Positions 48,555 through 48,615 of a stretch of DNA of 64,000 nucleotides are shown piece by piece. Both the position numbers and the translations under genes were made by a program. The notes under the pieces are model-generated. The model was not told the origin of the DNA, searched no databases, and saw only the letters and a list, made by a program, of their open reading frames with translations. The first letter of the stretch is position 1. Each line of letters opens with the position of its first letter. The stretch lies in NCBI RefSeq assembly GCF_030384885.1, contig NZ_CP128613.1; one strand, 5' to 3'. Source of the stretch: Escherichia coli. Lineage in GTDB: Bacteria; Pseudomonadota; Gammaproteobacteria; Enterobacterales; Enterobacteriaceae.

Positions 48555-48615
48555 CGCTTACTCATCAGACACTTGGTAGTCTTTATCTCAAACCAGCGTG
48601 ACTGATGTGTAAGCG
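48555..48615. repeat. imperfect inverted repeat at the island/yieH junction (possible yieH terminator or insertion scar)
   Basis: CGCTTACTCATCAG (48555-48568) and CTGATGTGTAAGCG (48602-48615), 13/14 complementary. Confidence 0.35.

Follow-up and report, generated by a model that had tools for sequence, protein, structure and literature searches.

What does a long imperfect palindrome do in the narrow gap where an island effector gene converges on a core metabolic gene? The question is raised by a 64-kb stretch of an Escherichia coli chromosome, called here the window, in which a sequence-only reading had noticed two inverted 14-nt arms between the end of a gene of about 800 codons and the stop codon of yieH, at the boundary of an island. 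That reading offered two interpretations: a bidirectional terminator separating the convergent genes, or a recombination scar marking the insertion. The arms are indeed found at 48555-48568 and 48602-48615, where they are complementary at 13 of 14 positions, and they lie between an 815-aa open reading frame (ORF) that ends at 48495 and the yieH stop at 48632-48634.

Results

A large hairpin between convergent genes

The inverted repeat extends beyond the arms first noticed, with arms of 19 nt at 48554-48572 and 48598-48616 that are 17/19 complementary and 25 nt apart. It stands within the 136-nt gap between the convergent genes espY4-like and yieH, where the features are arranged as follows.

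46048-48495, plus strand: EspY4-like type III secretion system (T3SS) effector gene, converging on yieH; ORF of 815 aa, with the RefSeq start at 46093 (800 aa)
48496-48553, plus strand: spacer of 58 nt from the effector stop to the hairpin; 57-58 nt in all copies, and unalignable between the paralogous copies
48554-48616, no strand assigned: whole stem-loop, an imperfect palindrome of 63 nt (repeat search, folding, covariance model)
48554-48572, plus strand: 5' arm ACGCTTACTCATCAGACAC, with conserved mismatch positions T48562 and A48569
48573-48597, plus strand: apical part, with an inner 5-bp helix (48573-48577/48592-48596), a variable 14-nt loop (48578-48591) and a bulged C (48597)
48598-48616, plus strand: 3' arm GTGACTGATGTGTAAGCGT (repeat search, variant alignment)
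48617-48631, no strand assigned: linker of 15 nt separating the hairpin from the yieH stop codon; homology to relatives lacking the island gives out at this stop or a few bases from it
48632-49297, minus strand: yieH (6-phosphogluconate phosphatase), the convergent partner (ORF and annotation)

The complete stem has 24 pairs, two mismatches and one bulge, and a GC content of 44 %. When folded as RNA, the 81-nt stretch containing the hairpin has a minimum free energy of -29.9 kcal/mol on the plus strand and -29.3 kcal/mol on the minus strand. Shuffled 81-nt controls average -14.5 kcal/mol (z of -5.5 and -5.4, respectively), and 0 of 200 shuffles fold as well. The folding energy was one of the checks proposed with the sequence-only reading, and it gave a stable predicted structure of about -30 kcal/mol whichever strand is read. 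As DNA, the hairpin reaches -17.3 kcal/mol (z of -5.3). We scanned the whole 64-kb window for inverted repeats with 19-nt arms, a minimum of 17 matches and loops no longer than 60 nt, and found this hairpin to be the only one of its size, with 0.07 expected from first-order Markov simulations. A covariance model of 20 variants scores it at 84 bits on the plus strand and 45 bits on the minus strand, and recognizes nothing else in the window. These analyses confirm that the inverted repeat is real and larger than had been claimed.

Two other readings of the gap were considered. A 62-aa ORF with a TTG start spans the hairpin on the minus strand (48443-48631), and was rejected as a gene because other alleles interrupt this frame with several stop codons. 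In the spacer, neither a scan nor direct reading revealed a promoter with proper spacing. The annotations of E. coli genomes show no feature under the hairpin.

The right edge of the Z5211-Z5214 island

The segment between phoU and yieH is the published Z5211-Z5214 island, an alternative to the bgl-yieIJ island of K-12 and the 'type III' of the bgl/Z locus (PMC2646131). It replaces bgl-cbrBC between phoU (stop at 43424-43426) and yieH, and the hairpin lies at its right edge, in line with the boundary that had been assumed. The 815-aa ORF is annotated as a hypothetical protein in an identical RefSeq genome and as the T3SS effector EspY4 in related genomes. In the alignment with K-12, another of the proposed checks, cbrB follows yieH, nothing past the yieH stop aligns, and the hairpin is absent. 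This comparison yields no sharp breakpoint, because divergence is spread across all of yieH: the last 57 nt of the gene are 65 % identical, identity ranges from 64 to 93 % per 100 nt throughout the gene, and values of about 95 % are regained only near 49,430. In 80 yieH loci of other species, homology to the window reaches the yieH stop codon or a few bases past it, and then ends. The island thus starts just past the yieH stop, which leaves the hairpin on the island side.

The window carries, at 48632-49430, a yieH haplotype that is deeply divergent from that of K-12 (84 % amino acid identity, and 64-65 % nucleotide identity across 48932-49131). Its YieH is 94-97 % identical to that of other Escherichia lineages, so that it is the K-12 allele that looks like the odd one. 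When compared with Enterobacter and Citrobacter, the 3' end of yieH is 84 % identical in the window and 75-77 % in K-12. On the other side of the gap, the EspY4-like protein has about 61 % identity with the common EspY4 found in O157 and strain 144. The nucleotide identity of the gene declines from about 85-90 % in its 5' part to 52-75 % in its 3' third, and in these alignments the gene looks hypervariable. The effector has a weak, sub-threshold pentapeptide match at residues 232-266, and a 396-aa protein encoded at 44605-45795 on the minus strand matches pentapeptide-repeat families.

At the opposite boundary, island haplotypes differ from K-12 in the last ~12 nt of phoU, and they carry immediately after the phoU stop a REP-like hairpin (TTGCCAGATAAGGC...GCCGCATCTGGCAA, at 43438-43472 in the window) that K-12 lacks. 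A candidate partner of the hairpin overlaps the phoU stop itself (43424-43437, reverse strand, 13/14 match to the 3' arm). We judged this match to be due to chance because it is present in the window's allele only, and not in O157 or strain 144. We rejected an attachment-site repeat of the island, since the other boundary has no matching repeat apart from this allele-specific one.

A second copy behind a paralogous effector

A more sensitive search (blastn) locates the hairpin at two places in most of the genomes that carry it. The second place lies outside the window's own sequence, in loci L002 and L003:

L002 4685-4866 (strain 144) and L003 4689-4870 (O157:H7): second hairpin copy with an internally deleted yieH fragment

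The hairpin itself (4685-4746 in strain 144, 4689-4750 in O157:H7) is found 58 nt past the stop of a Z5211-like effector gene. To its right lies a decayed yieH' (76-78 % identity), in which about 35 nt of the yieH 3' end precede a piece of 58 nt that corresponds to yieH nt 322-379. The presence of a second hairpin together with a yieH fragment indicates that the island holds a partial duplication of the hairpin-yieH end. The piece is too short and too conserved for the donor lineage of the relic to be assigned.

The two effectors are paralogous, their proteins being 32 % identical and their genes 58 % identical over about 2 kb. The spacers that separate them from the hairpin are 57-58 nt long in both copies and have no detectable similarity (p of 0.25-0.87). 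To the right of the hairpin, 35 of 51 nt (69 %) are identical between the copies (p < 0.0005). Homology sets in some 5 nt before the left foot of the hairpin and extends rightward into yieH or yieH'. From this edge and the contrast between the flanks, what was repeated is the hairpin together with the 3' region of yieH, in a unit that starts a few bases ahead of the hairpin.

Our search of the whole window found no second hairpin copy in it. The remnant of its Z5211-like paralogue (43705-44394 and 44464-44556) is listed in RefSeq as a frameshifted partial 'type III effector' pseudogene, and differs from strain 144 by two deletions, one of about 1.0 kb in the 5' part and another of about 1.2 kb that covers the 3' part of the gene, the hairpin copy and the yieH' relic. 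As judged from this alignment, the window has lost its second hairpin copy by deletion.

An element of one locus

The 145-nt intergenic region was found in 1,102 of 5,426 complete E. coli genomes, always in the chromosome and beside yieH. The window's allele is rare (18 of the 5,426 genomes match at 99 % or more), and the other genomes match at 80-90 %. The hairpin occupies one place per genome by megablast and at most two by blastn, the two being the paralogous copies of the island. It is absent from the other Escherichia species and clades and from the other genera sampled (BLAST, 80 yieH loci), and a covariance-model search of the window, K-12 and 79 other yieH loci matched the element itself and nothing else. 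The Rfam scan of 48300-48900 returned no match at E-values up to 10, and blastn found none in phage records. The single match among plasmid records is in a 4.9-Mb E. coli record that is evidently a chromosome. A pattern scan of metagenomes retrieved 46 stretches, all of them in the known context of espY4-type or Z5211-type flanks. When the effector was searched at the protein level for homologues outside the locus, EspY4 at the same locus dominated among the matches listed.

Two records deserve a separate mention. The assembly GCA_027567875.1, labelled Escherichia albertii, shares the layout phoU-island-yieH-adeP and contains the hairpin in both copies. Past adeP, genes of the aromatic lyase, FAD-binding and cytochrome c families replace yieF, and its yieH is 93 % identical to that of the window and 87 % to that of the E. 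albertii type strain. Both the hairpin and a yieH of E. coli type (96 % identity) also stand on the 3.1-kb contig JAIJJM010000384.1 of a metagenome-assembled genome labelled Collinsella sp.; this contig almost certainly reached the Collinsella bin as a contaminant from E. coli.

Conservation and direction of stem substitutions

To describe variation in the hairpin, we used 41 distinct sequences of both copies (from genomes and the 46 metagenome stretches), which contain 20 distinct hairpin variants. Among these variants, 13 of the 24 tested stem pairs are invariant, most loop columns vary, and variation is about three times as frequent in the loop columns as in those of the stem. Both arms, including the T·T mismatch, are near-invariant while loop and spacer are variable, with the caveat that the metagenome retrieval pattern called for an exact match to the outer arms in one or more copies on each contig, which limits claims on arm variation and does not affect the direction of changes. 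No stem pair shows a two-sided compensatory change in the 20 variants. Hence, the conservation could reflect sequence instead of structure.

The direction of the changes is informative on this point. Seven stem pairs vary on one side only, and always by C>T on the plus strand, which gives G·U in the effector-sense RNA and A·C in the yieH-sense RNA. At two internal mismatch positions, moreover, substitutions create G·U pairs on the plus strand, and only 1-2 stem changes favour the minus strand. The adjoining effector gene has no similar bias, its per-site rates being 0.230 for C>T and 0.204 for G>A. The excess of C>T in the stem has a p-value between about 0.006 and 0.08, depending on how events are counted. 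Such a strand-specific pattern argues for an RNA over duplex DNA. The plus strand folds at -23 to -31 kcal/mol in all variants. In the copy beside the dead yieH', the minus-strand fold is weakened (-18 to -24 kcal/mol) and the plus-strand fold is kept (-23 to -28 kcal/mol), whereas in the yieH-adjacent copy the minus strand folds as well as the plus strand.

Discussion

Our results describe a hairpin that is real, conserved and missing from annotations, at the right border of a known island; it is most likely an ordinary transcript-boundary element. More precisely, and with a probability that we put at about one half, the hairpin would be a bidirectional element without U-tract that pauses or terminates transcription, or protects 3' ends, in the gap between the espY4-like gene and yieH. 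Polymerase arriving from either gene would transcribe the hairpin, and the nascent hairpin would pause it. Transcripts may then end at the hairpin, or be trimmed back to it and have their 3' ends protected by it. The element would in this way keep espY4 transcription from entering yieH in antisense, and vice versa. Among the two interpretations of the sequence-only reading, the bidirectional terminator is the better supported one: the site is convergent, the element folds on both strands, the stem is conserved next to a variable loop, and its substitutions point to a constraint on RNA. With no U-tract after the stem on either strand, the hairpin does not belong to the canonical intrinsic terminators.

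For E. coli, one class of bidirectional terminators located between convergent genes was described as unlike intrinsic terminators and Rho-independent, with a hairpin that pauses polymerase on either side; release is driven by collisions, in a model that works best for well-expressed gene pairs (bioRxiv 10.1101/2022.10.23.513370). As far as the account given in that preprint goes, the hairpin-type terminators of Ju et al. 2019, such as that of ynaJ-uspE, have in common with ours a short convergent gap, an RNA hairpin on both strands and no intrinsic signature. The convergent location and the hairpin on both strands that characterize this class are both present here, and the position and anatomy of the element appear to fit terminators of the collision type. 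The differences are that our hairpin is known from sequence and predicted folding, that one partner is an AT-rich island gene of very low reported expression, and that substitutions favour one strand. In EDL933, read counts of Z5214 are very low in most conditions tested, and such low expression counts against the collision model at the espY4-yieH gap.

REP elements are known as barriers to 3'-exonucleases, and a similar role for this hairpin would be equally compatible with the data. Like REP and BIME, which stabilise the 3' ends of upstream mRNA, it is an intergenic imperfect palindrome at gene 3' ends and a plausible exonuclease barrier. Unlike them, it lacks the REP consensus (by reading) and is found at one locus, in one or two paralogous copies, instead of hundreds per genome. 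We rejected its identity with REP, ERIC, MITE or IS ends on the basis of core motifs and copy number (at most two per genome). There is a tension between two sets of observations, because homology ties the hairpin to the yieH side and the G·U pattern ties it to the effector-sense RNA. The two are compatible only if the element serves both genes.

The gap that follows yieH in some other Escherichia also holds a hairpin. In K-12 (L004 4441-4506), the yieH-cbrB gap contains one with a 15-bp stem, shared with E. albertii and two other Escherichia lineages, whose 3' arm contains the ribosome-binding site of cbrB/cbrC. It resembles the espY4-yieH hairpin in being stable (-29 to -37 kcal/mol over 110 nt) and in starting about 10 nt past the yieH stop. 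Yet, its sequence is unrelated (CTCCCTTCACTTACC...GGTAAGTAAAGGGAG), our covariance model does not recognize it, and it overlaps the ribosome-binding site of a co-oriented downstream gene, which the espY4-yieH hairpin does not.

Among the alternatives that also invoke RNA, the element might serve the mRNAs of the espY4/Z5211 family only, as an effector-specific 3'-UTR element for stability or processing (for instance as a substrate of RNase III), and have no function for yieH. This narrower version of the main reading is possible if doubtful. It would explain why one-sided substitutions keep pairing in the effector-sense RNA only, why a copy persists behind the Z5211-like gene in spite of the dead yieH', and why the distance from the effector stop is constant (57-58 nt); besides, an interrupted helix of about 24 bp would be long enough for double-strand-specific RNases. 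But homology links the hairpin to the yieH side and not to the spacer or the effector, the yieH-adjacent copy folds equally well on the minus strand, and the statistical support for the substitution bias is modest. That the hairpin terminates yieH, and by symmetry espY4, as a canonical Rho-independent terminator is quite unlikely. A stable hairpin 15 nt past the yieH stop resembles one in being a stem-loop shortly after a stop codon, and the minus-strand tail (AUGUUUCCCUUUC in the window, CUUUUCG or CUUUUUG in the copy beside yieH') may be the remnant of a better U-tract. Nevertheless, neither the GC-rich stem with a loop of 3-8 nt nor the U run after the stem is found: the GC content is moderate, the loop has 14 nt, the long 24-pair stem is interrupted by two mismatches and a bulge, and a scan for the consensus (stem, loop of 3-8 nt, T-run with at least 5 T in 8) made no call. 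An ideal run has a T-tail score of 5.1; the tails here, UAAAGUUCGG on the plus strand and AUGUUUCCCUUUC on the minus strand, reach 1.1 and 1.45, and the scores at the yieH-adjacent copy lie within 1.0-1.5.

Other explanations place the function in DNA, or dispense with function. The hairpin might be a junction or hot spot for the rearrangement or insertion of effector cassettes, its left foot joining divergent effector-plus-spacer modules to a constant hairpin-yieH module, or it might be the binding site of a palindrome-recognising protein. The point linking the hairpin to a history of rearrangement is that the homology between copies starts a few bases to its left, next to dissimilar spacers of equal length, and enters yieH sequence; the near-invariance of arms that do not covary, T·T mismatch included, and the predicted DNA hairpin also agree with a DNA-level site. 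We nevertheless consider it unlikely. The island has no annotated integrase, transposase or recombinase, the phoU boundary has no partner site, no copies exist elsewhere in E. coli genomes, plasmids or phages, and strand-asymmetric C>T changes are unexpected for duplex DNA. The 3' third of the effector gene is so variable between alleles that fast divergence of the spacer could also produce a sharp edge. For the recombination scar of the sequence-only reading we found no support, given the lack of a partner at phoU, the confinement to one locus and the lack of an annotated recombinase gene. An integron attC site offers another comparison, being an imperfect inverted repeat of about 60 nt with conserved unpaired bases, directly after an ORF, and the hairpin likewise recurs behind two unrelated-looking ORF-plus-spacer modules. 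We rejected this identity because the R''/R' core boxes (RYYYAAC/GTTRRRY) are absent (GTTAAAG, GTTGAAG and GTTGACG depart from GTTRRRY, and there is no RYYYAAC partner), and the island has no annotated integrase or cassette array. A fixed junction at which divergent units of effector plus 58-nt spacer were repeatedly joined to hairpin-yieH is a long shot. If true, the extreme allelic divergence of espY4 and the sharp edge of homology would both find an explanation, and the hairpin would count as a counterpart of gene-cassette recombination sites that works with no integrase. Finally, the palindrome might be a functionless relic, co-duplicated with the hairpin-yieH segment and kept by chance, by gene conversion between copies or by self-templated palindrome correction. 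The lack of two-sided compensatory changes and the restriction to one species and one locus speak for such a relic. Against it, the two copies have essentially identical outer arms, while their right flanks have diverged by almost a third and their left flanks cannot be aligned, and we estimate the probability of at least 36 of 38 arm matches at a neutral identity of about 70-76 % to be below 1e-4. Together with the excess of variation in loop columns and the non-random direction of stem substitutions, these comparisons suggest that a neutral relic is unlikely, and we give it very little chance.

The finding neither opens nor settles a major question. For annotation, its value is to put the right edge of the island at the yieH stop codon and to assign the hairpin to the island haplotype instead of the K-12-like core. 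The paralogous copy beside the dead yieH fragment constitutes a small natural experiment, in which pairing was kept on the strand that still has a living gene. If the transcript-boundary reading is correct, the hairpin would be one more U-tract-less boundary between convergent genes, with, in this case, a core metabolic gene on one side and on the other an effector gene that was acquired horizontally and is normally silent.
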